In this document: in pieces, positions 1,884 to 59,951 of the stretch | Numbering within the stretch: position 1 is the stretch's first letter | How the letters are laid out: every line of letters begins with the position of its first letter | IMG/VR virus record: IMGVR_UViG_3300031992_000010 | Strand: one strand, 5' to 3' | Source of the DNA: a virus | Taxonomy: Duplodnaviria > Heunggongvirae > Uroviricota > Caudoviricetes | Length of the DNA: 64,000 nucleotides | The notes under the pieces: model-generated | Databases searched by the model: none | Seen by the model: the letters and a program-made list of their open reading frames with translations, nothing else | What the model was told of the DNA's origin: nothing | Made by a program: the position numbers and the translations under genes

Positions 1884-3238
1884 AAATTAATATATTTTGT
1901 TAACCAATCATTAATACCGATTTTCCCCCAACTTCCGGCACCAAAATGAACAATATAATTATTATTTATTATTTTCGACATATTGGATTTTGCGGCAATT
2001 AAAAAATACCCACCGGTATCATATCGTTCACCTTTATCCGATACGTTTAATCCGTGCATATAATTTTCATTAAAATAATGAATCCCATTCTTTTTACATA
2101 AAGGTGTATTTATATAACAAATAAATGGTGATATTCTATCGGTACCCAAACGTTGATGGTGAATAATGTCGGCAACACAATATTTTGTCGGATTAATTAA
2201 TCCGGAAATATCCTTTTTAAGTAAAATATCGGAATCAAGTAATATAAATTCATTTTTAAATATATCCATAAATTTTTCCACAGTCCAACAATGTTTTGCG
2301 GAACCACATTTATTTATTTTAAAACCATATGAATTTATGTGATTTGGATAATTTTTCAACCATTTATCAAAATCAATGATTTGTCCTTTGGTATTATCAA
2401 TATAGTGGATTAAAGGAAATTTTTCATATGGGAATGGCCTTGTGGTACTATTATCAAATATATATACATCCGAATTGGGTGTAAATTTGCATATCGACAT
2501 ATATAGTGCGGTCGTAAGTTCCGGGGTATTAAAATGCACTATGACAAGATTCACCCTTTTTTTATTTCCTTGTCCAATATGTTGGGGATTAATCTCAAAA
2601 TATTCGGAATCCCTCACGATCATTTTTGGAAGGCTGTGAACCCGATAACCGGTTTTCCATATACAATAATTAAACGATAATTGGTCCCGGTGTGAACCGT
2701 TTTTAATCTCATTCCACCACATATCATCCAATTCACAAACCCAATCGACATTATGACGAACCAATAGATTGGTTTCGTTCAGGCCGAAATGTACAGGAAA
2801 CCCCTCATTTTTATAACGTTTTATTTGGGCCTCCGATTCAACACCGTTATCCTTTTTCATCCTCACACACACAACACGTTCGTCATATATACAATTGCGT
2901 TGAGGATGTTGTGGAACCGAAAAGTCCTTATTTTTACATATTTCGTTCACCAACTTCCACATACCCACCTTAATATGAATATTGCCGTCGACATATACCG
3001 ACCATTCGTGGTCGGGTAGAAACCGGTGTGGTTGGGTTTTAATACATCGCTGGCGTTTAACCGGCGAAAGGTCCTTGAGTTCCTCCGGTATTGGGTGGAT
3101 TTCCCAAATATTATTTATTATGTTTTGATCGGTAAAACAAATATACCGCCATCCTTTTGAAATTGTTTTAGGTATTTTTAAGGTATCATACGGTCCACTA
3201 ATTATAGTGTAACATATATTATCCATATTTGAAATCAA
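1874..3238 (-). CDS. putative two-domain glycosyltransferase (N-terminal DUF616/TOD1-like region YTIISGPYD...ICFTDQ)
   Basis: ORF track 454 aa; N-terminal signature resembles the DUF616 glycosyltransferase-like family; first gene of the minus-strand operon. Confidence 0.45.
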   Translation of the reverse strand: MISNMDNICYTIISGPYDTLKIPKTISKGWRYICFTDQNIINNIWEIHPIPEELKDLSPVKRQRCIKTQPHRFLPDHEWSVYVDGNIHIKVGMWKLVNEICKNKDFSVPQHPQRNCIYDERVVCVRMKKDNGVESEAQIKRYKNEGFPVHFGLNETNLLVRHNVDWVCELDDMWWNEIKNGSHRDQLSFNYCIWKTGYRVHSLPKMIVRDSEYFEINPQHIGQGNKKRVNLVIVHFNTPELTTALYMSICKFTPNSDVYIFDNSTTRPFPYEKFPLIHYIDNTKGQIIDFDKWLKNYPNHINSYGFKINKCGSAKHCWTVEKFMDIFKNEFILLDSDILLKKDISGLINPTKYCVADIIHHQRLGTDRISPFICYINTPLCKKNGIHYFNENYMHGLNVSDKGERYDTGGYFLIAAKSNMSKIINNNYIVHFGAGSWGKIGINDWLTKYINLWK

Positions 3239-3282
3239 GTATTTTTCAAATAATAAAATTCAGGACAGACTTATTAAATAAA

Positions 3283-3321
3283 TTCCGGAGATTTTATATA
3301 TTAATGTATAAATTAACGGAT
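3283..3321 (+). promoter_or_regulatory. conserved phage promoter-like motif (TTTATATATTAATGTATAAATTAACGGATATG)
   Basis: matches the TATATATTAATATGTAA...AGGATATG consensus repeated at least 17 times in the window. Confidence 0.5.
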
Positions 3322-3585
3322 ATGAAAAAATATTTTTATAGATTTAAGGTAATCGCCGGTGATTCAATCACCAAATATGACGGTGATTTACTTAACGAGG
3401 CCCAAATGAAACAAATGGAGGGTATCCTGTCGGAACAGGTTATGGAATCCCGTATCCGGGAAAGATTTTCAAAGGTGTATCCCGGTATGAATATCGAGGT
3501 GGAATTAAATTGGTATTCCTGTCTAAATACATACGGTCATTCGGAACGATTGATAAAACATTCTAAAATTAATATAAAATTGTAA
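3322..3585 (+). CDS. hypothetical protein (87 aa; the ORF track starts earlier at 3229)
   Basis: start chosen at the ATG preceded by the conserved GGATATG initiation context and promoter motif. Confidence 0.45.
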   Translation: MKKYFYRFKVIAGDSITKYDGDLLNEAQMKQMEGILSEQVMESRIRERFSKVYPGMNIEVELNWYSCLNTYGHSERLIKHSKINIKL

Positions 3586-3586
3586 T

Positions 3587-3778
3587 ATGGAAAGTATACA
3601 TTTTCTCCCGTGGGCGTGGTTTACAACCATTATCCTCATTTTATTGAAGGCATTCGACCTTATCAACCTGGGTTGGATTTGGGTTTTTGCACCCGTATGG
3701 GCTACCGTGGCCCTTGTGTTGGTATTATTCGTGTTTGCATTCATTATACGCCTAATATTTGCCATATTAACCGACTAA
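3587..3778 (+). CDS. small double-TM membrane protein (paralogue of 51050..51274)
   Basis: GWIWVFAPVWATVALVL versus GWSWWWVLAPIWAPVALVL in the 51050 gene. Confidence 0.45.
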   Translation: MESIHFLPWAWFTTIILILLKAFDLINLGWIWVFAPVWATVALVLVLFVFAFIIRLIFAILTD

Positions 3779-4315: not shown

Positions 4316-4501
4316 ATGATAAAAAAATATTATGAAATTTCGTGTGATCATTGCGAATGTGCCATTAGCCACGTGGCCGAACATCCTTCCAGGAGGACAT
4401 TACAGGAATTGGGGGTGATCGTATATAGGGGCAGGCATTTTTGTTCCGAACAATGTAAAGGGGCCTACCGATGGACGATGGGTGAAATAAATATTGGATA
4501 A
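4316..4501 (+). CDS. small zinc-ribbon protein (CDHCEC...CSEQC)
   Basis: ORF track; paired CxxC motifs. Confidence 0.4.
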   Translation: MIKKYYEISCDHCECAISHVAEHPSRRTLQELGVIVYRGRHFCSEQCKGAYRWTMGEINIG

Positions 4502-4506
4502 AAGTA

Positions 4507-4537
4507 GGACCGGGATTAAATTTTCCGGTCCTTTTTT
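4507..4537 (+). terminator. intrinsic terminator hairpin GGACCGGGA-TTAAATTTT-CCGGTCC plus T6
   Basis: perfect 7-bp GC-rich stem and U-tract directly after the stop of 4316..4501. Confidence 0.6.
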
Positions 4538-4570
4538 ATATATTAATATGTAAGTTAAATTAAAAGACAA
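4532..4570 (+). promoter_or_regulatory. conserved promoter-like motif TTTTTTATATATTAATATGTAAGTTAAATTAAAAG
   Basis: repeated motif; its upstream TTAAATTT element lies in the terminator loop. Confidence 0.5.
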
Positions 4571-4601: not shown

Positions 4602-4850
4602 ATGAGTCCAGTAGTTCCACATTCGACATATACTCATCACAGTCATCATCAAGACAATTATAAACAAGTTTCGTTCACCTGTGATTCTTGTCATTCAAAA
4701 TGTTATGTAAGCATAAAAGATGATGACAATATTCCAAATGTGTGCAATTATTGTCAGATGACAACCTGTGAAAAAGCTGTATATGGCGGATTTGGAATAT
4801 TTGTTTTTATAATAATCGGAATTCTGATTGTAAAATGGTGCAGAGCATAA
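4602..4850 (+). CDS. Cys-rich small protein with C-terminal TM helix
   Basis: ORF track. Confidence 0.4.
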   Translation: MSPVVPHSTYTHHSHHQDNYKQVSFTCDSCHSKCYVSIKDDDNIPNVCNYCQMTTCEKAVYGGFGIFVFIIIGILIVKWCRA

Positions 4851-4857
4851 GAAAATC

Positions 4858-4920
4858 GGACCCGGGATTAAATTTTCCGGTCCTTTTTTATATATTAATA
4901 TGTAAGTTGAATTAAAAGGA
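4858..4920 (+). promoter_or_regulatory. second copy of the terminator hairpin plus promoter cassette (near-identical to 4507..4570)
   Basis: about 60-bp near-perfect repeat of the upstream cassette. Confidence 0.55.
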
Positions 4921-5508: not shown

Positions 5509-5706
5509 ATGGTAAAGTATGTAATTGAATACGACACGGCAAATTCATTATCGTATACATATACCTGCGATACACATTGTACGGAGAAATTTGATGATTT
5601 GGATAAATTCAGGTGTCGTGCAAAAAGAATCCGGGACGATAAGGGTAAACGTAACATTGAATGTTACAAGATAATTAAGGAGTATATTGATATTAAAGCA
5701 TTTTAG
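5509..5706 (+). CDS. hypothetical protein (65 aa; in-frame internal start of track ORF 5404..5706)
   Basis: TTAAGGATATGG context at 5501..5511. Confidence 0.4.
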   Translation: MVKYVIEYDTANSLSYTYTCDTHCTEKFDDLDKFRCRAKRIRDDKGKRNIECYKIIKEYIDIKAF

Positions 5707-5708
5707 AT

Positions 5709-5906
5709 ATGAATGTATACGAATTGAGATATGCCATTCCGGCCGACCCCGAAATGTGCAGGAAATTGTTTGTGGATGATGGGAGTATCGAATATAAGGA
5801 GTTTATGAAACAAGTCAATTTATATTTGATGAATCCATTAATAGCAACAAACTACCATTCGTATAAGGTAATTAAGGATGGAATAAAAATGTTTTCAAAA
5901 AAATAA
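5709..5906 (+). CDS. hypothetical protein (65 aa)
   Basis: ORF track. Confidence 0.4.
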   Translation: MNVYELRYAIPADPEMCRKLFVDDGSIEYKEFMKQVNLYLMNPLIATNYHSYKVIKDGIKMFSKK

Positions 5907-5910
5907 AAAT

Positions 5911-6309
5911 ATGGAAAAATATAACAGTCACGAGGACTACGTAAGTTACGAAATAGGTGAACTCCTACAAATAAGTGGTTTTGAAGGAGATTGGCATAAA
6001 CATTGGTATGGCTATCAGGGTAAGGAACGTGCATTCCTCACCAGCGGACTATATAATTACGAATATGACGTCCCGGCACCGACATTGCAGGTTGCGGTAA
6101 AATGGGTATATGAAACATATAAGGTCCACATCCAGCCGGAGATATATTATTGTGAGGATGGAATGTCGTGGCTTGTGAAGATTTTCAAGGTGGGACCATA
6201 TAATACCACATTAATAAAAACAATCCTTCCAAATAATACAAAACAGGAGGCGATCGAAAAGGCATTGAATTATGTATTGGTAAAGATTAAAATAGAAGGT
6301 GAATTATGA
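5911..6309 (+). CDS. paralogue family A protein (EDYVSxExxxLL...APTLQVAxKW motif)
   Basis: shares motif with 13357, 13777 and 21216. Confidence 0.45.
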   Translation: MEKYNSHEDYVSYEIGELLQISGFEGDWHKHWYGYQGKERAFLTSGLYNYEYDVPAPTLQVAVKWVYETYKVHIQPEIYYCEDGMSWLVKIFKVGPYNTTLIKTILPNNTKQEAIEKALNYVLVKIKIEGEL

Positions 6310-6776
6310 TGCTATATAGTACGGGCAGCAAATGTGCGAAAATATTTGAGGATTATGCCTCGAAACGGAAGGCCTTCAATAAAAAACTAATGGGGCAAGG
6401 TGTAAAGGCATTCCGGCCTAACGATGGGTGGGTAAAACGTGGAAGGTCGTGTGTAATATTTTTCAATACCCGTATTTATGGAAAGGATCCTCGCAGTACC
6501 TCGTATTACCATCCAAATACACCGTTGCAGGCCGGTGACCTGATATTTATAGGTGATTATTCGTGTGGCGGCCGATATGCAAGGATCGAAAAGGTTTGGA
6601 TGAGGAGTGATTCATTTGCATACGAATATTCACCTCTATACGACTACGTGGATGGCCTCGATTATAAATACATAACGAGGAAAAACTATCCCCGCAAGGA
6701 TACACCTCTGTGGGAACGTATTAAATATCGGTTGGGATTATATGAACCGGAGTTTATGACGGATATTTATGAATAA
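6306..6776 (+). CDS. hypothetical protein (156 aa)
   Basis: ORF track; ATGA overlap with upstream gene. Confidence 0.45.
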   Translation: MMLYSTGSKCAKIFEDYASKRKAFNKKLMGQGVKAFRPNDGWVKRGRSCVIFFNTRIYGKDPRSTSYYHPNTPLQAGDLIFIGDYSCGGRYARIEKVWMRSDSFAYEYSPLYDYVDGLDYKYITRKNYPRKDTPLWERIKYRLGLYEPEFMTDIYE

Positions 6777-6789
6777 ATTTTTATAATAT

Positions 6790-7038
6790 ATGGGAAGGAA
6801 TAAACCGAGAACGGCCGTGGGCAGGGTTGTCAATCAAAAACTTGCCGAAAACGGTACCGAATGTGAATGGTGGGATGGTGGATATCCGGAATGTATGTTG
6901 AATTGGGCACATAAAGGGGACAAAGGTTGTAACGGCAATCCATTTGTATGTAGAAAACTTTATTACCAACATCTTGCATCATTAAGTGACGCGGAAAAGG
7001 CAAAAATAGGAGAATTATTTTTACATAAATTTGATTAA
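6790..7038 (+). CDS. hypothetical Cys-containing protein (82 aa)
   Basis: ORF track. Confidence 0.4.
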   Translation: MGRNKPRTAVGRVVNQKLAENGTECEWWDGGYPECMLNWAHKGDKGCNGNPFVCRKLYYQHLASLSDAEKAKIGELFLHKFD

Positions 7039-7044
7039 ACTATT

Positions 7045-7335
7045 ATGAAAGCATTTGATAAATATTATTTAAAAACCGCATTTCGGGGAAATATTGCATT
7101 TAGTAGTAGGGTACAAAGCATATTACAATGGTTCGGCATTGCCGTGCATAATCCCTGGAGGGACGAGTGTTGTGTGGACTTCGCCTGTTGTTCGCCAACC
7201 GGCAAGGAGCGTTGCTGGCTATCAATTCCGGCAAATAAACTACCATATCGCAGGGTTGTATGGTACGAACCTACGGCACCAATTGGGACACCGGGTAGGA
7301 CATTTAAAAAGTGTACAAAATTAGTAAGACAATAA
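7045..7335 (+). CDS. hypothetical Cys-rich protein (96 aa)
   Basis: ORF track. Confidence 0.4.
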   Translation: MKAFDKYYLKTAFRGNIAFSSRVQSILQWFGIAVHNPWRDECCVDFACCSPTGKERCWLSIPANKLPYRRVVWYEPTAPIGTPGRTFKKCTKLVRQ

Positions 7336-7339
7336 CAAT

Positions 7340-7618
7340 ATGAAACCAACAATTGACGACATCAAACGTGCGGAGGCACAATTAAAACCGTGCCCATTTT
7401 GTGGGGCAAAACCAACAATAGTATTATGTGACGATGAGGGAAACATCCACGGGTTCGAATATCTCGAGGACCCATATTCAGGCATTGGATTTATGATATC
7501 ACATCCTAAAAGTCCGAACAGTGACTGCCCGTTGGCAAGTTATTGGGAGGAGACGTTATTCCCTAACATATATGACGATCCCGAACAATTGGCCCGAATT
7601 TGGAACCGTCGACATTAA
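7340..7618 (+). CDS. putative Lar-family restriction alleviation protein
   Basis: N-terminal LKPCPFCGAKPTIV motif as in Lar-like restriction-alleviation proteins; size of 92 aa fits. Confidence 0.4.
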   Translation: MKPTIDDIKRAEAQLKPCPFCGAKPTIVLCDDEGNIHGFEYLEDPYSGIGFMISHPKSPNSDCPLASYWEETLFPNIYDDPEQLARIWNRRH

Positions 7619-7664
7619 ATTTTCCCGGAATCCTTTATATATTAATATATAAAAAATAAAGGAT

Positions 7665-8027
7665 ATGGATACAAGAAATTTTACAACGAAGGAACAAAGT
7701 GAAAGATTGATCGCCTGTGGTATTAACATTGAAACGGCTGATTATACAATCTCCGGAAAAACGATTGTTGACCACGAACAGGGAAATCCCCGTGATAAAA
7801 ATGAAATTCCCTGTTGGTCGATGAATGCATTAATGGATATCGTACCGGAATCGATTATTGAAGGCACCAACCGCATTGAATATCCACTCCACATGACTAA
7901 AAGTGACGGAATGTGGACCGTTGGGTATTTTTCAGGTAATATGAAATTCTCCTCAATCGATCCGATCGATTGTTTGGTTAATATCATCGAAAGATTCAAG
8001 ATTGAAGGGCGTGAGGTAAACGATTAA
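7665..8027 (+). CDS. paralogue family B protein (IPCWSxxAL motif)
   Basis: shared motifs with 24761 and 25808. Confidence 0.45.
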   Translation: MDTRNFTTKEQSERLIACGINIETADYTISGKTIVDHEQGNPRDKNEIPCWSMNALMDIVPESIIEGTNRIEYPLHMTKSDGMWTVGYFSGNMKFSSIDPIDCLVNIIERFKIEGREVND

Positions 8028-8059
8028 TTGTGTGTAGGTAAAAATAGGAGGATAAAACT

Positions 8060-9615: not shown

Positions 9616-9701
9616 ACGAGGTATAATACAAATACGTTTCGACGAATTGGATGCCGCATTTAAAGTGATAATTAAGTTAAACGAATTAGAATATTAAAAT
9701 T

Positions 9702-9905
9702 ATGGAGGTAAAAGGTTCGGTAAAAATGGAGATAATGCCTATTGGTTGTCCGTTGCAAAATATTAACTGTATTGCCTGTAAATATTTGGTCGATACATAT
9801 CTTGAAGAAGATACGAAAGAAAACAAATTAGTGGCAACCATACTTTGTAATTGGAAAGAAGATACGAAAGAAAACAAATTAGTGGCAACCATACTTTGTA
9901 ATTAG
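9702..9905 (+). CDS. small protein containing a perfect 16-aa tandem duplication
   Basis: EEDTKENKLVATILCNWK x2 arising from a 48-50-bp tandem DNA repeat at 9805..9904. Confidence 0.35.
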   Translation: MEVKGSVKMEIMPIGCPLQNINCIACKYLVDTYLEEDTKENKLVATILCNWKEDTKENKLVATILCN

Positions 9906-9930
9906 GGAGAAAAATAAAAATAATAAAACT

Positions 9931-30440: not shown

Positions 30441-30455
30441 ATCATAACCAATGTT

Positions 30456-30486
30456 ATAATCCCGGTTCGAGTCCGGGTTGGGGGTC
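30456..30486 (+). other. tRNA-like 3' fragment (T-arm CCCGG-TTCGAGT-CCGGG plus TTGGGGG acceptor 3' strand); no matching 5' half
   Basis: GGTTCGAGTCC T-loop consensus with a 5-bp stem; the complementary CCCCCAA is absent within 100 nt. Confidence 0.35.
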
Positions 30487-30577
30487 GTATGAAAGTACCG
30501 TCATAAATGGTTGGCGGCAAACCTCGATTAACAATTGGAAGGTTCCTCATTGGTTGTGATTTTTAAAATTTTTATAT

Positions 30578-32771: not shown

Positions 32772-32859
32772 TACAAGGATAATATCAAATAATGACCTTC
32801 GGAATTAAATTTCCCGGGGTTTTTTTATATATTAATATGTAAATTAAAAGGAGGTAAAT

Positions 32860-33451: not shown

Positions 33452-33753
33452 TGGCTAAAAAAATTAAACCAATATTACTACCAAATCGATACGGGGATAA
33501 GAATTATCTTGTCCCGTTACAGGAATGGAAAGGTGATGCCATCACCAAAGGCGCATATAAATTCGAAGGTGATAAAAACGCCGGGGATACAATGCGTTTC
33601 ATTTTGGGTGACGATAATAAATCCATCGAGGCATTCGATCCATCCGGCGGTCCTATGTTGGGCATCGGCGATGAGGTAAGACCCGGTGAAAAAATAACCG
33701 GTATTGTATTTAAAAAAGGTGAAGGATTAATAATTTATACAACGATTGATTAA
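33451..33753 (+). CDS. hypothetical protein (100 aa)
   Basis: ORF track. Confidence 0.45.
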   Translation: MAKKIKPILLPNRYGDKNYLVPLQEWKGDAITKGAYKFEGDKNAGDTMRFILGDDNKSIEAFDPSGGPMLGIGDEVRPGEKITGIVFKKGEGLIIYTTID

Positions 33754-34843
33754 AATGTACGGGACTGTGGAAAATATATGGGATGCATTGAATAAACTTC
33801 GTGACGAAGGATTAATAAGTATTCGCCGTCACCCGGTATATCCAATAAGTGTCATCAAATACACCGCGGAGGCAATGTATGATGGATGGCTGAAAGGACC
33901 TGAATCCCATAATTATCCTTATACATTATTGCCATACCTGCGTGGTATTGTAATCGACGACAAAGGTAAAATTGTCAGCGGTTGTTTGAAAAAATTCTTC
34001 AACGTGGAGGAATTACCGGAAAACGAGGCCGATTATATTATGGCACACGCCAACGCCATTACCGAGAAGTTTGATGGTACCTGTATGTTATTGTCGGAAT
34101 ATGACGGTGAAAAATTCTTCCGTACATTGGGATCGTTTGATTCCGGGCAGGCCTTAAATTCAAATAAACTATTTCTCACCACCGTTTCCAACCTGAACAC
34201 CCGGAAATATACATATATGTTTGAATATATATCACCGGAGGACCGTAAGGTGGTAAACTATGGTAACGAAACACAACTTGTATTTATATGTCGAATCGAT
34301 AACGAAACAGGCCGGGATGAATTTTTTGAGGAGATTAATGATGATGATATATTTTCATTAATGGATTTTAAACACGTCATAATTCAACACCTGGATAAAA
34401 ATATATCGGCATTAAAAGGTCTTGATATCGATAATGCGGAGGGATTTGTTATCCGTGCGGAGAATGGGGCACGTATGAAAATCAAATTCGAAAACTACCT
34501 TGAAAAATTCCGTTCAAAGTTCCAATATACCATCAACGATGCACGGATGGATTGGCTTGAAAATGCCGGCGGAGATTATGATAAACTTGCCGCCGAATAT
34601 AAGTGGGACGAGGAAATGGCGACATATGTTAAAGGATTGTTTGCCCGCTGGGATGACCAATATGAGGCAACCCGGAAGGTGATATATGATATTTATGCAC
34701 AATATAAGGATCTTCCAACGATAAAGGATTTCGCCATGGCGGTAAATGAAAATCCATATCGCGCGGCCTTGATAATGTTATATAAAAACAAAAACCGGGA
34801 CTGTATGGGGTGGATAAAAAAATTCGTCATAAAATCAAAATAA
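33746..34843 (+). CDS. rnlA: RNA ligase 1 (T4 RnlA-like)
   Basis: nucleotidyltransferase motif I TEKFDGT; N-terminal stretch YLRGIVIDDKGKIVSGCLKKFFNVEE parallels T4 Rnl1 [30 protein letters not shown]; C-terminal MKIKFENY parallels FKIKSDWY. Confidence 0.6.
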   Translation: MIKMYGTVENIWDALNKLRDEGLISIRRHPVYPISVIKYTAEAMYDGWLKGPESHNYPYTLLPYLRGIVIDDKGKIVSGCLKKFFNVEELPENEADYIMAHANAITEKFDGTCMLLSEYDGEKFFRTLGSFDSGQALNSNKLFLTTVSNLNTRKYTYMFEYISPEDRKVVNYGNETQLVFICRIDNETGRDEFFEEINDDDIFSLMDFKHVIIQHLDKNISALKGLDIDNAEGFVIRAENGARMKIKFENYLEKFRSKFQYTINDARMDWLENAGGDYDKLAAEYKWDEEMATYVKGLFARWDDQYEATRKVIYDIYAQYKDLPTIKDFAMAVNENPYRAALIMLYKNKNRDCMGWIKKFVIKSK

Positions 34844-34894
34844 TATTAAATTTTCAATTCAATAGGAATATATTAATAAAAAATTATTTATAAT

Positions 34895-35980
34895 ATGAGA
34901 AAATTGGCAAGTATAAGAACAATTAGTTCAACCTACCCAATTAAAGGTAAGGATCGTGTTGAAATGGCCGTTGTCGACGGTTGGACCTGTATGGTAAGCA
35001 AGGCTGACAATTTTAAGCCGGGTAGTCCATGTGTATTTTGTGAACCCGATTCGGTTTTTCCACAAACGGAAAGATGGGAGTTCCTAAAAAAATACAACTA
35101 CCGCATCAAAACACAAAAATTCAAGGATGAGGATGGCAACGCCATTTATTCACAAGGTTTGGTACTCCCAATGAGTGCGGTAACCGGTGGAAAGGTGGGC
35201 GACGACGTAACGGAACAATTAGGTATCACCCAATACGAGAAAACCATGGATATCGAAAAGGATGAACCGGTTAAATCAAAAAATCCTTTGATGAGATACA
35301 AATGGTTCCGTAACCTTAATGCCAAACTATTCGGCAACGTGGTTACCCGCGAACGATTCCCGGAGGAGGTATCAAAAACCGACGAGGAACGTATCCAAAA
35401 CTGTCCTAACAAACCGGCATTGTCCGCGATTTGGACCATGACCGAGAAGGTTGACGGCCAATCGGGCACATTCCTATTGAGAAAACATAAGGGGTTGTTT
35501 GGTACCAAATATGAGTTTGTTGTTTGTTCGCGTAACTTTAAGACCAATAATAAAAATACCTCATATTGGAAATGTGCGGAAAAATACCACATTGAGGAGG
35601 CATTAAAAAATATTATTGGCGATAACGAATGGATTTGCCTTCAAGGTGAATGTCTTGGTCCTGGCATTCAAGGCAATAAGTATAAGTTTACCGACTATGA
35701 ATTTCGTGGGTTTAATTTGATTACACCAAAGAAACGTTTGGGTAGTGGATATTCGGCGGAATTAATGGCGGAACAAAACATTCCGTGGGTACCAATACTT
35801 GGTGAAATTTCAGGTGATCAATTAATGGAATTGGGTGTTGATGGTATATTAAGGGCGGCAAATGGACCTTCCAAATTAAATCCGAATACCAAACGTGAAG
35901 GTATTGTATTTAGAAGTACCAATGGTACACTATCATTCAAGGCGGTTTCACCGGAATTTTTGATCAAATATAACGAATAA
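34895..35980 (+). CDS. ATP-dependent RNA ligase of the NgrRnl/DraRnl type (Rnl5-like)
   Basis: N-terminal MRKLASIRTISSTYPIKGKDRVEMAVVDGWTCMV...FKPGSPCVFCEPDSVFP signature domain; lysyl-AMP motif TEKVDGQS. Confidence 0.5.
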   Translation: MRKLASIRTISSTYPIKGKDRVEMAVVDGWTCMVSKADNFKPGSPCVFCEPDSVFPQTERWEFLKKYNYRIKTQKFKDEDGNAIYSQGLVLPMSAVTGGKVGDDVTEQLGITQYEKTMDIEKDEPVKSKNPLMRYKWFRNLNAKLFGNVVTRERFPEEVSKTDEERIQNCPNKPALSAIWTMTEKVDGQSGTFLLRKHKGLFGTKYEFVVCSRNFKTNNKNTSYWKCAEKYHIEEALKNIIGDNEWICLQGECLGPGIQGNKYKFTDYEFRGFNLITPKKRLGSGYSAELMAEQNIPWVPILGEISGDQLMELGVDGILRAANGPSKLNPNTKREGIVFRSTNGTLSFKAVSPEFLIKYNE

Positions 35981-37939: not shown

Positions 37940-38101
37940 TTTTTCATTTTAAGGCGGTTTTAAGGCGAGATCTCAAAAAAGATATATAATTATATTATTT
38001 TTGCAAGATCTCTTGTTAAATCGAAGAAAAATGCGAAAAAATCGGATGTTTAAATTAAATATCCGATTTTATTTTTATATATTATCCAAAATCGGCAAAA
38101 A
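37940..38101. promoter_or_regulatory. long intergenic regulatory region (candidate origin/ncRNA)
   Basis: contains TTAAGGCGGTTTT, palindrome GAGATCTC-N31-AGATCTC around an AT palindrome, and the inverted repeat AAAATCGGAT-N13-ATCCGATTTT. Confidence 0.45.
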
Positions 38102-38611
38102 ATGAAAAAAAATATTACATTCGAATATCTCCCGGTACACGGCGATCCTGCAACGGTTGGTATTGAAATCGTGTTTCCTGATTTTGAGGAATATACCGAT
38201 GAGGTTGTTTTAAATGGACAATGCCTGTCCATAACAATCACGGTCGAGGATCAAATTATGGAATACCTCGACGATATGGATAAATCCGATATTATGGCAA
38301 AATATGATATGGAAATTATTATGGATTACCATATTACCCCACCGCCGGTGGATGAAATGGAGGACTTTAAAACATTCCTTTACTATTGGTGCAAGGTATG
38401 TCATATTGGCCCGGAAATGTTAATGTTGGTAATTGAATACGCCGCAAATTCAAAAACAATATTTGGATGCGGCAAGACCAATATTCAAAAACTTGCGGAT
38501 ATACTTGACGGTATCAACCTTTGTTTCAGATCGAAGGATGCCGCATATAAGGAGGCGATCCAAATAATGCGTGGTGGGGATAAAAAACCGGCCGGGATGT
38601 TAAATTTTTGA
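38102..38611 (+). CDS. hypothetical acidic protein (169 aa)
   Basis: ORF track. Confidence 0.45.
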   Translation: MKKNITFEYLPVHGDPATVGIEIVFPDFEEYTDEVVLNGQCLSITITVEDQIMEYLDDMDKSDIMAKYDMEIIMDYHITPPPVDEMEDFKTFLYYWCKVCHIGPEMLMLVIEYAANSKTIFGCGKTNIQKLADILDGINLCFRSKDAAYKEAIQIMRGGDKKPAGMLNF

Positions 38612-38659
38612 CCGGGTTTTTATATATTAAATTGTAAATTAAATTAAAAGGATATTGAT

Positions 38660-40414: not shown

Positions 40415-40471
40415 AAAAATAAACAAACGTATATTAAATTTTTGGCCCATATTGCCCATATTAAATCATTA

Positions 40472-40540
40472 AAGGAATGCGGTACAGGCATTCACTTTTT
40501 CAAAACGAAAACGGAGGCGGAGGAATATGATTATTTTTAA
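40472..40540 (+). pseudogene. gene remnant encoding ...ECGTGIHFFKTKTEAEEYDYF*, homologous to the C-terminus of the pentapeptide-repeat protein (10948..11760)
   Basis: no in-frame ATG; matches MECAEGIHFFRTKEEAEKY of 11680..11740. Confidence 0.4.
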
Positions 40541-40566
40541 TGGATTATTTTTAATGGATTATTTAT

Positions 40567-40749
40567 ATGGAAAAAGAAGGAAAATGTTGCTTTTGTGGCA
40601 GTAAATATACCAACTATGGCAATTCAACGTGGGGATGCTGGTCCAGGGAGGAGGAAATGTTGGGTGTGGGTGAGAAAAAGAGATGTTGCAATAAATGTAA
40701 TATTGAGGTTGTGATCCCCTCAAGAATTGCAATGAGGAATAAATTTTAA
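40567..40749 (+). CDS. small Cys-rich zinc-finger-like protein
   Basis: ORF track. Confidence 0.35.
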   Translation: MEKEGKCCFCGSKYTNYGNSTWGCWSREEEMLGVGEKKRCCNKCNIEVVIPSRIAMRNKF

Positions 40750-54675: not shown

Positions 54676-54755
54676 AAAAAAAAAGGTCCGGGAATTAAAT
54701 TTTTCGGACCTTTTTTATATATTAATATGTAAGTTAAATTTAAAGGATTAAGGAT
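54676..54755 (+). promoter_or_regulatory. terminator hairpin AAAGGTCCGGGAATTAAATTTTTCGGACCTTTTTT plus promoter motif cassette
   Basis: near-identical to the cassettes at 4507..4570 and 4858..4920. Confidence 0.55.
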
Positions 54756-55562: not shown

Positions 55563-55753
55563 TCGAAAATAAAATTTCAAAATTAAGGCGGTTTTTCTTG
55601 AGTTTAACAGGAGATCCGCCTTAACATAATAAATTATAAATGCCATGATGAGATCTCGCGGTAGGGCTCAAATAAATGGCAAAAAATTTTTTAAGGAAAA
55701 TATTAAATATTTTTCAAATTCTAAATATATTATGTTTAAATTTGTAAAATAAT
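55563..55753. promoter_or_regulatory. long intergenic regulatory region (candidate origin/ncRNA) sharing TTAAGGCGGTTTT and GAGATCTC with 37940..38101
   Basis: 9-bp stem hairpin TTAAGGCGG-N25-CCGCCTTAA; GAGATCTC palindrome; AT-rich run before the replication gene. Confidence 0.45.
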
Positions 55754-58700
55754 ATGAACGTTTCGTTAGAGCAAAGTTTGCAGGCATATAGGGTTTACCA
55801 TACTCCGGTAAATTTGACGTGGAAGCAGCATTATGTTACGGAACGATTTTCAAACGACAATATATTACTATGTCCGAAGGATGAGAGGGATAAATTCCTG
55901 GGCCGTTTGATGGAAGGTAATATAATGATAGCACCTAATATTAAGGCGCGTGAGGGTCAGGTATGTCATTTAAAGGATTTGATAAACACCGTGGTGAATC
56001 CGGCCAATAAAAATATATTGAAGGCAAACCGTAAGGTGGTATATAGTTCATCAACCACGGCACGTCCTATTGGTAAGGCCGCATTCGATTTATGGAATGG
56101 ATTTCAGGTAATCGATATGGATATCAAGGATGCCGGGATTTCCAACCGATTGAAGTCGGCGTTGTTTGAACGATTAAAAAAATTCAATTGGTTTTTGGGC
56201 ATCGCATTATCATCATCCGGGAAAGGCCTACACATATATACAAAAATACAAATACCGGAAAATGAAACCGACCCGGTTCAAAAACGTATATTATTCTTTA
56301 CCAATTTCCGTCATAAATATTCATTTGTATACCTTGCATGTATGAAATTGCAGGATGAAATTGGTTTTAATACGGATCAACTCATTCATTGGATGGACCT
56401 TGCGATGTTTAAGCCACAGCAAGGTGCATTTATTGGTTATGATGAAAATATATTGGTTAACTCCAACTTTTTTGAGGATTTTATTTATGTCAACTTCGAT
56501 AATATCGAGGATATTGGATACGATGGGGTAATCGATTGGGTTACGTATCCGGATTTAAAGGAGTTATTCAAACGTTGGGAATGGTTTGCGGAGGATAAGG
56601 ATGAGGAGATAGAGATTAATGTTAAGGAGGCCAGGCCATTGGAGGTGGATACCCATAATAAATTCCACTATAAACACCACGAACGTTGGAGGCTGGCAAA
56701 TACGCTGGTTAAACTTTATGGCCTACAAACAGGTACAAGATACCTTCGTATGATTTGTACCAACGATATTCCGACAAAGGAAATACAGGCCGACTGTGTT
56801 ACCGCCTCGCGTCACCAAAAGCCAATAGATGTTTGGGCCGTAAACCGTTTGAATACACAACACGGTTTCAAAATCAAACTTGACGTTGATTCCGCGGAGG
56901 AAAAAAAAGATGAGGATGATGCGATGTCGGTGATGGGGAAGGTTGAGTTGATAGATTCGCCCACGGCGATCAAATCATCCAAATTTTATAAGGAATTTCA
57001 TATAACAAAGGATCAATATTTGGGCGATATTAAAGGGGATTTATTAAAAAACGTGGGGAGGGTCACATTAATTGAGGCCGGGGCTGGTGTGGGTAAAACC
57101 GAAATGGTTAAGTCCCTCGTACGTGATGGAAAAAAGGTCATTATGGTGATGCCATTCACCTCGACGATTAAATCGAAGGTGGAAAATGTGGATGATTGGT
57201 ATTATTCATATGGTAACCGCAAGGTAAAACTCGATGGCAGCAAGGGGTTGGCAATGACAATAGATAAATTTTCCCGCCTGAATCTTATGGATGTCAAGGA
57301 GTGGGGATTTGATTATATATTTATTGATGAGTCCCACCTTCTATTTCAATCCGAATACCGGCCTATTATGCCAAAGGTAATCGAAATGATTTGTAATACG
57401 GAGGTACCGATTATATTAATGTCGGGAACCCCTGTTGGTGAAACCATTTTCTTTGAAAATCTTATACATTTAAAGGTTATAAAGGAGGAAACAAGACAAA
57501 AGGAGTTCCGGGTACATATTACGGATAATCCCGGTCACCAATTGTTTTACCTATGTAATGCGATGGCGGAGGATATAGTTAACGGCCGCCGTGTATTATT
57601 TCCGACAAATAAGGGAACCGCATTTAAGGAACAGGTCGAGGCCGGGTTGAAGGAAATACTTGAATCCAAATATGCGTGGTTTGAGGACCTGAATGTAAAC
57701 TATTATAAAAAATCAAACGTGGGTGAGGAGTTTATGAATAAGATAAATGTGGACAAAACAATCAAGGATACCCACGTACTTATGTGCTCGACATACCTAT
57801 CCGTAGGTGTGGATATTTTGGATAAATATAAATTTAATATATATTTCGACGAATTATGGATGCCACAGGAGGTGGAACAGTTCGCCAATAGATTGAGGGC
57901 AAACGATTTGTTCATAAATCTATTTATAGCAAAAAATACCAACGAAGGTGAGTCCCGGAATATATATACATATCGTAAACTTGACCTTAATCTCGACCCT
58001 AATGAGGTAAAGGATGCCCACGCCCTGGTTCAATTGGCAAACGCCTCAATACAACGTTCTCCGCTTGAATATCGGTATAATACGTTGGTGTCCAATATTA
58101 TTAAGGCAAGTAAGTTTATTGAATATGATGATGTGGATAATCGTTATAGAATCAACGCAATAGCATATAAGGTAATAAATTTTGAACATCGTTATCGGGA
58201 TTATGTACAGCAACTTATGGTCCTCATCCGTGGGATGCAGGATTATGGATACCAATATTCCATCACCGATAAATCCGGTGAAAACCTCAATAGTGATGCT
58301 TGGCAGGCCTTCAATGTGGTAACACACGCGGCGAAGGATGAACGTGAACGTATCAATGCCAAACATATTGATGAGTTATTGGATATTATTACCGACGACC
58401 GCCTGGGTATATACAAATCGGTTTTGTCCGGTGAGTTTGATATCAAAAAGGGTGCGGATTGGACCGAGAATATTAGAAAACGGGAAATGACCGTAAAAAA
58501 TATTGAAATATTTGAAAAGGTTATTCCGTTATTTGTGTCCATGACGAAAATGTATTCGGTGGATGATGTGAAGGAAATATTTTACTTTTGTCGAAAAGGT
58601 AATTTATACAATTTCGCCGCAATTAGAAGATTGAGAACATTAATTAACATATTTTATTATAACAAACAAAAAAGATTGGATATACCATTTGCCGATTATA

Positions 58701-59032
58701 TGAAGGATGTATATGAATTGGCGGAGGAGCCGAGAACCAAACAGGAGATGTTTGATTTCCTCGAAAATGAAACCAATAAGTATGCCAAAAATGATTCCAC
58801 GGAGGATATTGATATAACGAAATCACCGTTAACGATGGAAGGAATCAAAAAGGCGTTGGATGGTATATTAAAATGTTTATGTACCGTAAAAAGAAAAAAT
58901 AAAAAATTTATATTGGAAAAAAATGAATTAATATGGAAGGAAAAGGAAACGGACTCCGAGTTTATAAATAAAAAATTCGAATTGAGTGAGTTCCTCGACG
59001 ACCTGATTGTAACTATGGAGGAGGCAAAGTAA
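55754..59032 (+). CDS. putative primase-helicase: N-terminal AEP/PrimPol-like domain fused to a DExH-box helicase
   Basis: IDMDIKD (hhhDhD), GKGLHIYTK (sGxGxH), GAGVGKTE Walker A, IFIDESHLLF DExH box; 1092 aa. Confidence 0.5.
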   Translation: MNVSLEQSLQAYRVYHTPVNLTWKQHYVTERFSNDNILLCPKDERDKFLGRLMEGNIMIAPNIKAREGQVCHLKDLINTVVNPANKNILKANRKVVYSSSTTARPIGKAAFDLWNGFQVIDMDIKDAGISNRLKSALFERLKKFNWFLGIALSSSGKGLHIYTKIQIPENETDPVQKRILFFTNFRHKYSFVYLACMKLQDEIGFNTDQLIHWMDLAMFKPQQGAFIGYDENILVNSNFFEDFIYVNFDNIEDIGYDGVIDWVTYPDLKELFKRWEWFAEDKDEEIEINVKEARPLEVDTHNKFHYKHHERWRLANTLVKLYGLQTGTRYLRMICTNDIPTKEIQADCVTASRHQKPIDVWAVNRLNTQHGFKIKLDVDSAEEKKDEDDAMSVMGKVELIDSPTAIKSSKFYKEFHITKDQYLGDIKGDLLKNVGRVTLIEAGAGVGKTEMVKSLVRDGKKVIMVMPFTSTIKSKVENVDDWYYSYGNRKVKLDGSKGLAMTIDKFSRLNLMDVKEWGFDYIFIDESHLLFQSEYRPIMPKVIEMICNTEVPIILMSGTPVGETIFFENLIHLKVIKEETRQKEFRVHITDNPGHQLFYLCNAMAEDIVNGRRVLFPTNKGTAFKEQVEAGLKEILESKYAWFEDLNVNYYKKSNVGEEFMNKINVDKTIKDTHVLMCSTYLSVGVDILDKYKFNIYFDELWMPQEVEQFANRLRANDLFINLFIAKNTNEGESRNIYTYRKLDLNLDPNEVKDAHALVQLANASIQRSPLEYRYNTLVSNIIKASKFIEYDDVDNRYRINAIAYKVINFEHRYRDYVQQLMVLIRGMQDYGYQYSITDKSGENLNSDAWQAFNVVTHAAKDERERINAKHIDELLDIITDDRLGIYKSVLSGEFDIKKGADWTENIRKREMTVKNIEIFEKVIPLFVSMTKMYSVDDVKEIFYFCRKGNLYNFAAIRRLRTLINIFYYNKQKRLDIPFADYMKDVYELAEEPRTKQEMFDFLENETNKYAKNDSTEDIDITKSPLTMEGIKKALDGILKCLCTVKRKNKKFILEKNELIWKEKETDSEFINKKFELSEFLDDLIVTMEEAK

Positions 59033-59033
59033 A

Positions 59034-59951
59034 ATGGAATCAACCGACAAAAACATTATTCAAATTTATTTCAAGGAAATAAATGACATCTACACGGCAA
59101 ATAATAACGACTATGATATAGAGTATTGTGCCGAGAATCGTGAGAAACTAATTCAAATGAACCTAAAATCGGTAATACATATTGCCAAAAAATATGTGGG
59201 TTTGGGTGTACCGTTGGAGGATCTTATATCCGCGGGCAATGTGGGATTATGTATAGCATACGATCACTATGACCCTAACCGCAATACATTAAAACAACAG
59301 GTTCTAAAAATCCTGAAGGAAAAGGACGATTTTATTCCATATGATGAAATGGGTGAGGTATTCACATTGATATCGTATGGTGCGTTGAGTAAAAAGTTTG
59401 CGGCCGATTTTCCGGAGGAGGGAATGTATAACAAACAAAAACTAATTGATTGGGTGCATAAGAATGTATTCTCCGCAAAATTTAATTCGATTGCGGCTAT
59501 GTGGATTCGTGCCCATATAATGCAGGAAATTGATAATAACTCCCGCCTTGTAAGAAAACCGAAGGTGATAATTTATAAGGATAAACAGGAATCCAATACA
59601 TATCAAACGGAAATACTTACGGACCTGACCGGGTTGGATAAGGATGATGATTATGCAGTGGATGGTAATACAATCCCGGAGGTAAAGGAATCATACAAAA
59701 CATTCAAGGCAAACCTGAACCTGTTATTGGACGGTGTTTGTTCCCGCGATAGGGGAATATTGTTGAAAAAATTTGGTATTGGCCTTCCACGTCCAATGTT
59801 ACCAAAGGAGATAGCGGATCAGGAGGGATTATCAATTGCCCGTATATCGCAAATCATCCAAAATACCACCGAAAAAATGATTGTGAATAGTAAAAAATAC
59901 AATATAAATAGTAAACAGATGTATGACGATTTACAAAATATGACGTTCTAA
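59034..59951 (+). CDS. sigma-70-family RNA polymerase sigma factor
   Basis: region 2 LIQMNLKSVIHIAKKYVGLGVPLEDLISAGNVGLCIAYDHYDP; region 4 HTH LPKEIADQEGLSIARISQIIQNTTEKM. Confidence 0.7.
   Translation: MESTDKNIIQIYFKEINDIYTANNNDYDIEYCAENREKLIQMNLKSVIHIAKKYVGLGVPLEDLISAGNVGLCIAYDHYDPNRNTLKQQVLKILKEKDDFIPYDEMGEVFTLISYGALSKKFAADFPEEGMYNKQKLIDWVHKNVFSAKFNSIAAMWIRAHIMQEIDNNSRLVRKPKVIIYKDKQESNTYQTEILTDLTGLDKDDDYAVDGNTIPEVKESYKTFKANLNLLLDGVCSRDRGILLKKFGIGLPRPMLPKEIADQEGLSIARISQIIQNTTEKMIVNSKKYNINSKQMYDDLQNMTF

Follow-up and report, generated by a model that had tools for sequence, protein, structure and literature searches.

Two intergenic regions within the plus-strand gene array of an uncultivated phage, located at positions 37940-38101 (R1) and 55563-55753 (R2) of a stretch of 64,000 nucleotides (the window), share short sequence motifs and dyad symmetry, which raises the question of the function served by these gaps. 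In the initial annotation they had been considered as candidate replication origins, as binding sites of a phage regulator or as loci for small structured RNAs. The underlying observation was confirmed in part and its interpretation is partly supported. It is highly likely that each gap constitutes a boundary between transcription units, where promoter and terminator signals are combined with a phage-specific palindrome that occurs in two inverted copies.

The window contains about 100 mostly small plus-strand genes between approximately 3.3 and 59.9 kb and minus-strand genes at both ends. In agreement with the earlier description, R2 is located directly 5' of the gene for a primase-helicase (55754-59032, plus strand, 1092 aa). 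This protein combines a primase-like N-terminus with a DExH helicase core. Its family matches comprise a weak one to primases as well as DEAD/ResIII, and its invariant residues comprise D121/D123 (D-x-D), G158-H160 (G-x-H), a GAGVGKT Walker A motif and DESH; on these grounds it can reasonably be called a primase-helicase. The gene is directly followed by one for a sigma factor (59034-59951, plus strand; Sigma70_r2, phrog_351), and because this order is found in all relatives examined (L002-L006 and L036-L043), the two genes probably form one operon downstream of R2. After the sigma factor gene, a convergent ORF of approximately 1084-1180 aa without family match is present in the window as well as in relatives, and upstream of the helicase gene the relatives carry QueC, dCTP-deaminase-like and AAA_28 genes. 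The 1092-aa protein has more than 800 metagenome homologs, residing on contigs of 200-240 kb, and its nearest cultured relatives (25-28% identity) stem from the jumbo phages Sphingomonas PAU, Chryseobacterium MA9V-1/2 and Tenacibaculum PTm1/PTm5/pT24. The source of the window can be assigned to the jumbo phages, as an uncultivated relative of PAU and PTm1. The latter is a T4-core "group 2.2" jumbo phage that lacks an RNA polymerase of its own and encodes sigma factors (PMC7824862), a trait with which the sigma factor gene 3' of the helicase gene agrees.

With regard to transcription signals, both gaps end in TTAAAT-N17-TATATT, located at 38055-38083 on the plus strand in R1, 19 nt 5' of the ATG at 38102, and at 55703-55731 on the plus strand in R2, 23 nt 5' of the ATG at 55754. 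A search for TTAAAT-N{16,18}-TATATT yielded 18 matches in the window, all of them on the plus strand and with N=17, while 0.67 are expected by chance. TTAAAT (-35), a spacer of 17 nt and TATATT (-10) are predicted to be the standard promoter of this phage, i.e., an ordinary transcription signal among features that had been offered as signs of an origin or a non-coding RNA. The perfect 10-bp inverted repeat AAAATCGGAT-N13-ATCCGATTTT reported for R1 is indeed present (38038-38070, plus strand). It is followed by a T-run, its loop holds the -35 box of the promoter and a terminator scan scored it as terminator-like. A listing of all gaps revealed a family of cassettes composed of a hairpin with the loop ATTAAATTT, a T-run, TATATATTAATATGTAA and a ribosome-binding site, of which about 20 occur on the plus strand between 3255 and 54738 in front of small ORFs (e.g., 4498-4559, 4845-4911, 32786-32849 and 54676-54738). 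A cassette profile built without R1 and R2 found about 20 copies in the window and matched 38034-38084 (E=1.8e-4). Because of this match, with which the terminator scan agrees, the inverted repeat is assigned as the terminator hairpin forming the 5' part of such a cassette: together with the T-run and TATATATTA it represents one of about 20 terminator-promoter cassettes and does not qualify as evidence for an origin or a non-coding RNA. The R2 promoter gave no significant match to the cassette profile, and only a weak AT hairpin is found there. The R1 cassette is nearly identical in the relative L009, in which the rest of the gap has diverged, and this may hint at recombination or indels between unrelated genes by way of the cassettes. 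Distant relatives, too, have a TATATATTA-like box 5' of the helicase gene. The gene downstream of R1 (38102-38611, plus strand, 169 aa) has no family match and is followed by another cassette at 38581-38644. In a relative with 71% helicase identity (L005) that has no palindrome upstream of the helicase gene, positions 3194-3639 contain a tandem duplication of approximately 190 nt that includes a terminator-promoter cassette.

Composite terminator/promoter motifs known as PeSLs have been described for T4-type phages (Arbiol et al., 2010, PMC2839356; Comeau et al., 2014, PMC4122927). The cassettes resemble them in the fusion of a stem-loop and T-run to a promoter and in their about 20 occurrences, all on one strand, between the small ORFs of a long early-type array. 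On the other hand, they differ in their consensus (loop TTAAAT, -10 TATATATTAAT), in belonging to a phage lineage that is only distantly T4-like and in that the R2 promoter lacks a clear hairpin. They are best classified as a new example of an already known signal type, the PeSL-type composite cassette. Though ordinary, they are useful for annotation as they provide a promoter consensus and a map of transcription units for an uncultivated jumbo phage.

The statement that R1 and R2 are the two longest gaps of the plus array does not hold, as others of 204, 191, 267 and 227 nt occur at 8028, 10291, 12128 and 32772, with all lengths referring to a rough ATG-only ORF set, such that some gaps may contain small ORFs. 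Other non-coding stretches have peculiarities of their own. At 9616-9930, inside a gap of this rough ORF set, approximately 50 nt are directly duplicated in tandem (GAAGAAGATACGAAAGAAAACAAATTAGTGGCAACCATACTTTGTAATT, twice), and the gap 40415-40566 carries short tandem repeats (TAATGGATTATTTT and GCCCATATT, two copies each) just 5' of the gene at 40567. In the gap 30441-30577, CCGGTTCGAGTCCGGG resembles the T-arm of a tRNA and may be a tRNA remnant; ARAGORN calls no tRNA there, and searches of the window for tRNAs (ARAGORN) and tmRNAs were negative.

Besides the promoter, each gap contains one copy of an imperfect palindrome, positioned away from the gene, that comprises approximately 80 bp, or up to approximately 110 bp when a conserved flank is included. 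Two arms of approximately 20 bp each (consensus approximately GATTTAACAAGAGATC and GATCTCTTGTTAAATC), with GATC at the inner end of each, enclose a spacer of 34 or 35 bp with an AT-rich centre and a TAnAAT-like hexamer on both strands, approximately 13 bp from each GAGATC. In R1, the left, "short" and degenerate arm (37951-37972, plus strand) ends in GAGATC (37967-37972) and is overlapped by a direct repeat of TTTTAAGGCG (37947-37956 and 37958-37967). The AT-rich 34-bp spacer (37973-38006) has the centre ATATAATTATAT with TATAAT at 37985-37990 and a similar hexamer on the opposite strand, and the right, "long" arm (38007-38028, plus strand; GATCTCTTGTTAAATCGAAGAA) is the best-conserved block of the palindrome family. 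In R2, the long arm with its conserved extension lies on the minus strand at 55585-55616 (the plus strand reads AAGGCGGTTTTTCTTGAGTTTAACAGGAGATC), the 35-bp spacer (55617-55651) features ATTATA at 55633-55638, equivalent to TATAAT on the minus strand, as well as TAAATT at 55630-55635 on the plus strand, and the degenerate short arm (55652-55673, minus strand) begins with GATCTC (55652-55657), its minus-strand sequence GCGAGATCTCA matching that of R1. Full nhmmer matches to the element profile extend from 37944 to 38054 on the plus strand and from 55680 to 55569 on the minus strand. In both window copies, 27-30 bp separate the end of the palindrome from the -35 box of the standard promoter that follows it, and the two copies have opposite orientations relative to their downstream genes.

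Alignment of R1 with the reverse complement of R2 resulted in a score of 51, compared to 18.1±2.7 for shuffled sequences, none of which reached it in 1000 trials, and extends over approximately 70 nt in the form GCGAGATCTCA..TATAATT.TATTAT..GATCTCYTGTTAAA..AAGAAAAA. As judged by this alignment, R2 is an inverted paralog of R1. The two regions are thus related in inverted orientation, while their similarity on the same strand is weak, with a score of 26 that is reached by 19 of 1000 shuffles. The shared 13-mer TTAAGGCGGTTTT was recovered exactly at 37949 and 55583 and at no other place in the window; the 8-bp palindrome GAGATCTC occurs solely at 37967 and 55650, with 0.2 occurrences expected. 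Both are pieces of the larger palindrome. The 13-mer belongs to the outer arm. Its R2 copy (55583-55595) falls for the most part into the long arm with its extension, while in R1 it is contained in the direct repeat that overlaps the short arm, and it is common to both regions on the same strand only because the element itself is palindromic. Chance thus does not explain the shared motifs, which identify a specific cis-element in the form of a conserved DNA palindrome whose centre is AT-rich. Some details of the initial annotation require correction. Its extended palindrome in R1 is present (arms 37959-37989 and 37990-38020, 71% complementary), with AAGATCTC rather than GAGATCTC as second arm, and the R2 hairpin TTAAGGCGG/CCGCCTTAA is found at 55583-55591 and 55616-55624 with a loop of 24 instead of 25 nt and is missing from the orthologs L002 and L038. 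The alleged third half-site, AAAATCGG, is a common 8-mer that occurs 12 times in the window, reads AAAATCGA in relatives and is not conserved. A small ORF in R2 (ATC start, approximately 16 codons) that seemed conserved in three relatives was discarded, as it has a non-canonical start and an in-frame stop just 5' and is also broken in L009, L036 and L003.

In a scan allowing up to one mismatch, exact GAGATC-N34/35-GATCTC was encountered only in R1 and R2 within the window and in their orthologs, and a profile derived from nine copies detected just R1 and R2 in the 64 kb. Conservation in related genomes, proposed as a check for the candidate loci, is evident for the palindrome, which is kept at the same sites in related phages. 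The regions upstream of helicase orthologs with 81-88% protein identity retain AAGGCGGTTTTTCTTGAGTTTAACAGGAGATC ... GATCTC, R1 orthologs retain GAGATC-N34-GATCTC, and the nine-copy profile recovers L009, which was outside the training set, in the R1 orientation (E=8e-9). Between the window and these relatives the long arm is approximately 80-85% identical, while identity at third codon positions of the helicase gene amounts to only 47-56%, which shows a conservation of the palindrome above the neutral level. Because orthologous copies keep arms, centre and spacing despite divergence in the remainder of the spacer and at synonymous sites, the element appears to be under purifying selection. Upstream of the helicase gene, the palindrome is confined to the clade with at least 81% identity; none of 27 more distant relatives has an element within 3 kb of this gene.

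Pattern scans of IMG/VR and JGI/ENA metagenomes, followed by searches with the element profile, uncovered about 20 further distinct copies on metagenomic contigs with phage-type genes, where they are located between unrelated genes. Most copies of the family have two "long" arms, and the family consensus reads AAAAATCTTyGATTTAACArGAGATC - N34/35 - GATCTCyTGTTAnAyyrAAGAAAAyCGC. The left-arm consensus is the reverse complement of the right arm, even though the left arm was outside the search pattern, and the conserved extension on the right side is asymmetric. Among 24 distinct elements, spacer measurements gave 34 or 35 bp for 19, and R2 falls into this range too. By inspection, the centre is AT-rich throughout the family and features one TAnAAT-like hexamer per strand (TATAAT, TACATT, TATAAG and others) approximately 13 bp from GAGATC. 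Words within the centre that differ between elements are repeated at an offset of 7 or 8 nt (109 matches vs. 95±4, reached by 2 of 2000 shuffles), a result that is only suggestive because the sequences compared are related. Apart from the two copies in the 64-kb window there is one copy per contig, and no second copy was present in approximately 100 kb of sequence flanking other copies. DNA searches of GenBank phages with both regions and their flanks returned nothing, and no full copy is found among these phages. In GTDB, 596 Gb of bacterial and archaeal genomes contained no full copy but only partial pattern matches, on which grounds a host site was rejected. These searches show the element to be restricted to phage-like contigs. 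The arm sequence is absent from the searchable literature, in which only unrelated primers matched; the palindromes represent an undescribed element family, although the kinds of element that come into question (operator, origin) are already known. A different unit of approximately 90 nt, ending in GAGATCTCTTGTTAGAGCGAAAATAA, is present twice on contig ODKB01000016.1 (163 kb; L072, 1-110, and L110, 4470-4580). Both copies match only the right arm of the element profile and may constitute a second, related repeat family.

The genomic context was judged for 19 independent loci from their listed flanks. The element has the direction of both flanking genes in six and the opposite direction in seven of these loci, five copies are situated between convergent gene ends and a single one between divergent starts. 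The arms are usually no more than approximately 25 nt from stop codons on one or both sides, and in five loci a start codon follows 19-28 nt past the arm. The proteins encoded next to independent loci are unrelated to one another, and no recurrent neighbor gene that could specify a binding protein was detected among them. Neighbors of other copies include a T4-type (family-B) DNA polymerase, an SF2 helicase, an Mre11-like phosphoesterase and TnpB. The TnpB-like ORF (47-1027 of L075, contig JAEIGA010217624.1) has the orientation of the element, is located approximately 1.3 kb from the palindrome and encodes a protein with OrfB_IS605 and a Cas12f-like TNB domain.

Among the functions that can be envisaged for the palindrome, we rank a transcription-control site first and a replication origin next, while roles at the RNA level or as a selfish element are less likely. 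The proposal of a protein-bound control site at the boundaries of transcription units is tentative, and its chance of being correct is put at somewhat below even. It is placed first because of the position of the element just 5' of promoters and gene starts, its nested arm dyads, its conserved -10-like centre and a geometry similar to that of T4 middle promoters. A sequence-specific protein encoded by the phage, dimeric or tetrameric, would span the two arms of the palindrome. It would control transcription by occupying an operator or activator box that flanks a symmetric promoter, or else by forming a roadblock or insulator, and at R2 it would gate the operon of primase-helicase and sigma factor. 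The earlier suggestion of binding sites for a phage regulator is, as far as the palindrome is concerned, the interpretation that we infer and favor. Activator-dependent (MotA) middle promoters of T4 likewise have a conserved box approximately 12-13 bp from a TAnnnT-type -10 element and lack a proper -35 element, and a link to replication genes, the phage's own sigma factor and a T4-like core add to the resemblance with middle promoters and oriF/oriG. In contrast to MotA-dependent promoters, the palindrome is symmetric, having a box in either half, and infrequent (about one per 30 kb or less); its box is unrelated to the MotA box, and some copies reside at convergent ends. The latter, five of 19 loci against one between divergent starts, offer no gene to which a promoter or operator could belong, and together with the opposite orientations of the two window copies toward their downstream genes they speak against a control site; the low copy number would suit any special site including an origin equally well. 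Furthermore, the -35-like TTAACA of the arm lies approximately 20 nt from the best-conserved TAnAAT hexamer of the family, which by inspection is 13 nt from GAGATC, and this distance would be too large for a normal sigma-70-type promoter, in which 16-18 nt separate the two hexamers. By eye, TTAACA of the long arm is approximately 15 nt from CATAAT. A promoter scan reported TTAACA-16-TAATAT on the minus strand of the R1 palindrome; for that of R2 it reported only TTAACA-17-CATGAT on the plus strand, with the -35 element in the spacer and at a frequency expected by chance. In some copies (R2, L071, L052 and L036) the right flank agrees with a promoter of the Bacteroidota type (TTG ... TAnnTTTG), which was dropped as a general explanation, since many copies as well as the about 20 cassettes of the phage itself lack it. 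If an operator is present, it would stand for a regulatory switch and, via the binding protein, a regulator common to the lineage.

Replication origins are a possible yet doubtful alternative. The arms would then be inverted initiator sites, for example for the adjacent PrimPol-like/DExH protein, and unwinding would take place in a core formed by the AT-rich 34/35-bp spacer together with the T- and A-runs that border it. T4 oriF and oriG are built on MotA-dependent middle promoters and consist of a promoter and an unwinding element; because T4 origins have this composition, control site and origin overlap there, and the palindrome would be similar if its centre also acted as promoter. On the level of sequence, the inverted 20-bp arms, whose palindromic sequence is conserved, the twofold TTTTAAGGCG repeat and the AT-rich spacer of strictly maintained length would be compatible with initiator sites next to an unwinding region. 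Each arm contains GATC although GATC is depleted in the window (123 vs. approximately 214 expected), the copy number is low, the element is phage-restricted, and positions at convergent gene ends are compatible with an origin. R2 directly precedes the primase-helicase gene, and other copies are found beside the family-B DNA polymerase, SF2 helicase and Mre11-like phosphoesterase genes; many, however, neighbor genes without link to replication or without family match, and the 27 more distant relatives lack the element near the helicase gene. A conserved TAnAAT-like hexamer also exceeds the needs of an unwinding element. In the GC-skew analysis suggested earlier, neither 38.0 nor 55.6 kb coincides with an inflection: values stay positive throughout both sites, and the sign switches only at approximately 3.2 and 59.9 kb together with the gene strand. 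Because skew follows the direction of transcription it is uninformative for origins here, and in phages of this type it is a weak test. Palindromic origins in which initiator sites flank an AT-rich spacer are represented by HSV oriS/oriL and the SV40 core origin. Common traits are the inverted conserved arms around an AT-rich spacer of fixed length, few intergenic copies by replication genes and, in the case of the palindrome, a neighbor encoding an SF2-type helicase; in the phage element the spacer is twice as long and the centre has a -10-like hexamer, and the comparison of sequence architecture spans eukaryotic viruses and a bacteriophage. That the 80-bp palindromes serve as origins of a large uncultivated T4-core jumbo lineage and are recognized by the PrimPol-DExH fusion encoded beside R2 is rather unlikely. 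Origins, if confirmed, would offer a first handle on how these phages start replication and, from sequence alone, an example of herpesvirus-like origin architecture in bacteriophages. An RNA-level element is unlikely. Such an element would be transcribed within the mRNAs of its flanking genes, in either orientation, and fold into a long hairpin acting as bidirectional terminator, 3'-end stabilizer or RNase site, or would give rise to a small RNA extending from the centre of the palindrome to the next terminator. Single sequences fold better than shuffles (z -3.1 to -3.6), as any palindrome does, in most loci a stop codon shortly precedes the element on one side or on both, a U-rich UCUUGUU follows the inner stem on both strands, and a canonical terminator approximately 10-30 nt after the element in R1, L099 and L052 would bound a transcript of approximately 80-90 nt starting at the centre. 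Yet the arms do not covary: among 21 sequences, pairing was found in 72.3% of cells vs. 71.3±0.9% when the 3' partners were permuted among sequences (reached by 88 of 500 shuffles), and the covariation score was 0.114 vs. 0.103 (reached by 90 of 500). A quarter of the arm positions are non-pairing mismatches, with G-U (38) not in excess of A-C (29), so that neither strand is favored, and complementarity within the spacer is at chance level (115 vs. 112±7). At the gathering threshold, Rfam gave no match in the window, and at permissive thresholds only chance-level matches (E at least 0.34) in the two regions. The fixed spacer length and the conserved centre would be superfluous for a hairpin, and the hairpin of R2 is not conserved in orthologs. 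Intrinsic terminators within the palindromes were not called by the scan, and such a structure would have a loop of 34-35 nt and, in UCUUGUUA, a tail that consists of U only in part. A long-range helix AAGGCGGTTTT/AAAATCGC in single-sequence folds was unsupported by the family alignment. The small structured RNA considered earlier is thus disfavored by Rfam, by arm covariation and by the G-U/A-C comparison alike. Since covariation is absent, the arms are kept as palindromic sequence, and their conservation points to recognition of DNA and not to an RNA defined by structure only, with sequence-specific recognition of nucleic acid in general fitting as well.

Finally, a selfish MITE- or REP-like palindrome without function for the phage, mobilized in trans by a transposase that uses the arms as terminal inverted repeats, is very unlikely. 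It would account for the occurrence in both orientations between unrelated genes, the tight packing between stop and start codons, the A-runs on both outer sides and the patchy distribution, in which copies preceding the helicase gene are confined to the clade that shares at least 81% identity. Near-identical copies of the MITE type were not found; instead, there are two strongly diverged copies in 64 kb, which argues against a recent burst, and one per contig elsewhere. This very low copy number, the purifying selection on arms, centre and spacing in orthologous copies and the asymmetric extension on the right are at odds with such an element, and it has no associated transposase, the sole TnpB being encoded 1.3 kb from a single copy. 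Correia/REP/ERIC-type elements are small palindromic intergenic repeats, and the palindrome is similar to them in its size of approximately 80-110 bp, its inverted arms and its intergenic location in either orientation, often in 3' untranslated regions. It differs in that copies are very few and diverged, in the selection on arms and centre, in the restriction to phages and in its absence from the 596 Gb of prokaryotic genomes. Having set these alternatives against the transcription-control site that we favor, we note that the palindromes form a conserved, phage-restricted family of cis-elements with strict geometry and without match in Rfam or GenBank phages, one copy of which fronts the operon of primase-helicase and phage sigma factor. 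Whichever function is true, the element is a compact, testable target of 79 bp with two conserved arms.

Two further observations concern the window beyond the two gaps. Two neighboring RNA-ligase genes, noted for 33746-35980 of the window and 5657-7882 of the close relative L007, are annotated in the latter as RNA_lig_T4_1 followed by RNA_ligase/PHA02142. In addition, several palindromic tetranucleotides are rarer than expected from base composition (212 each) or from a Markov model: CTAG is absent (24 expected by the Markov model), AGCT occurs eight times (15), CATG 62 times (236) and GATC 123 times (214). This avoidance of 4-base palindromes looks like the avoidance of restriction sites. 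CCGG, on the other hand, is over-represented with 331 occurrences (73 expected from base composition and 267 from the Markov model).
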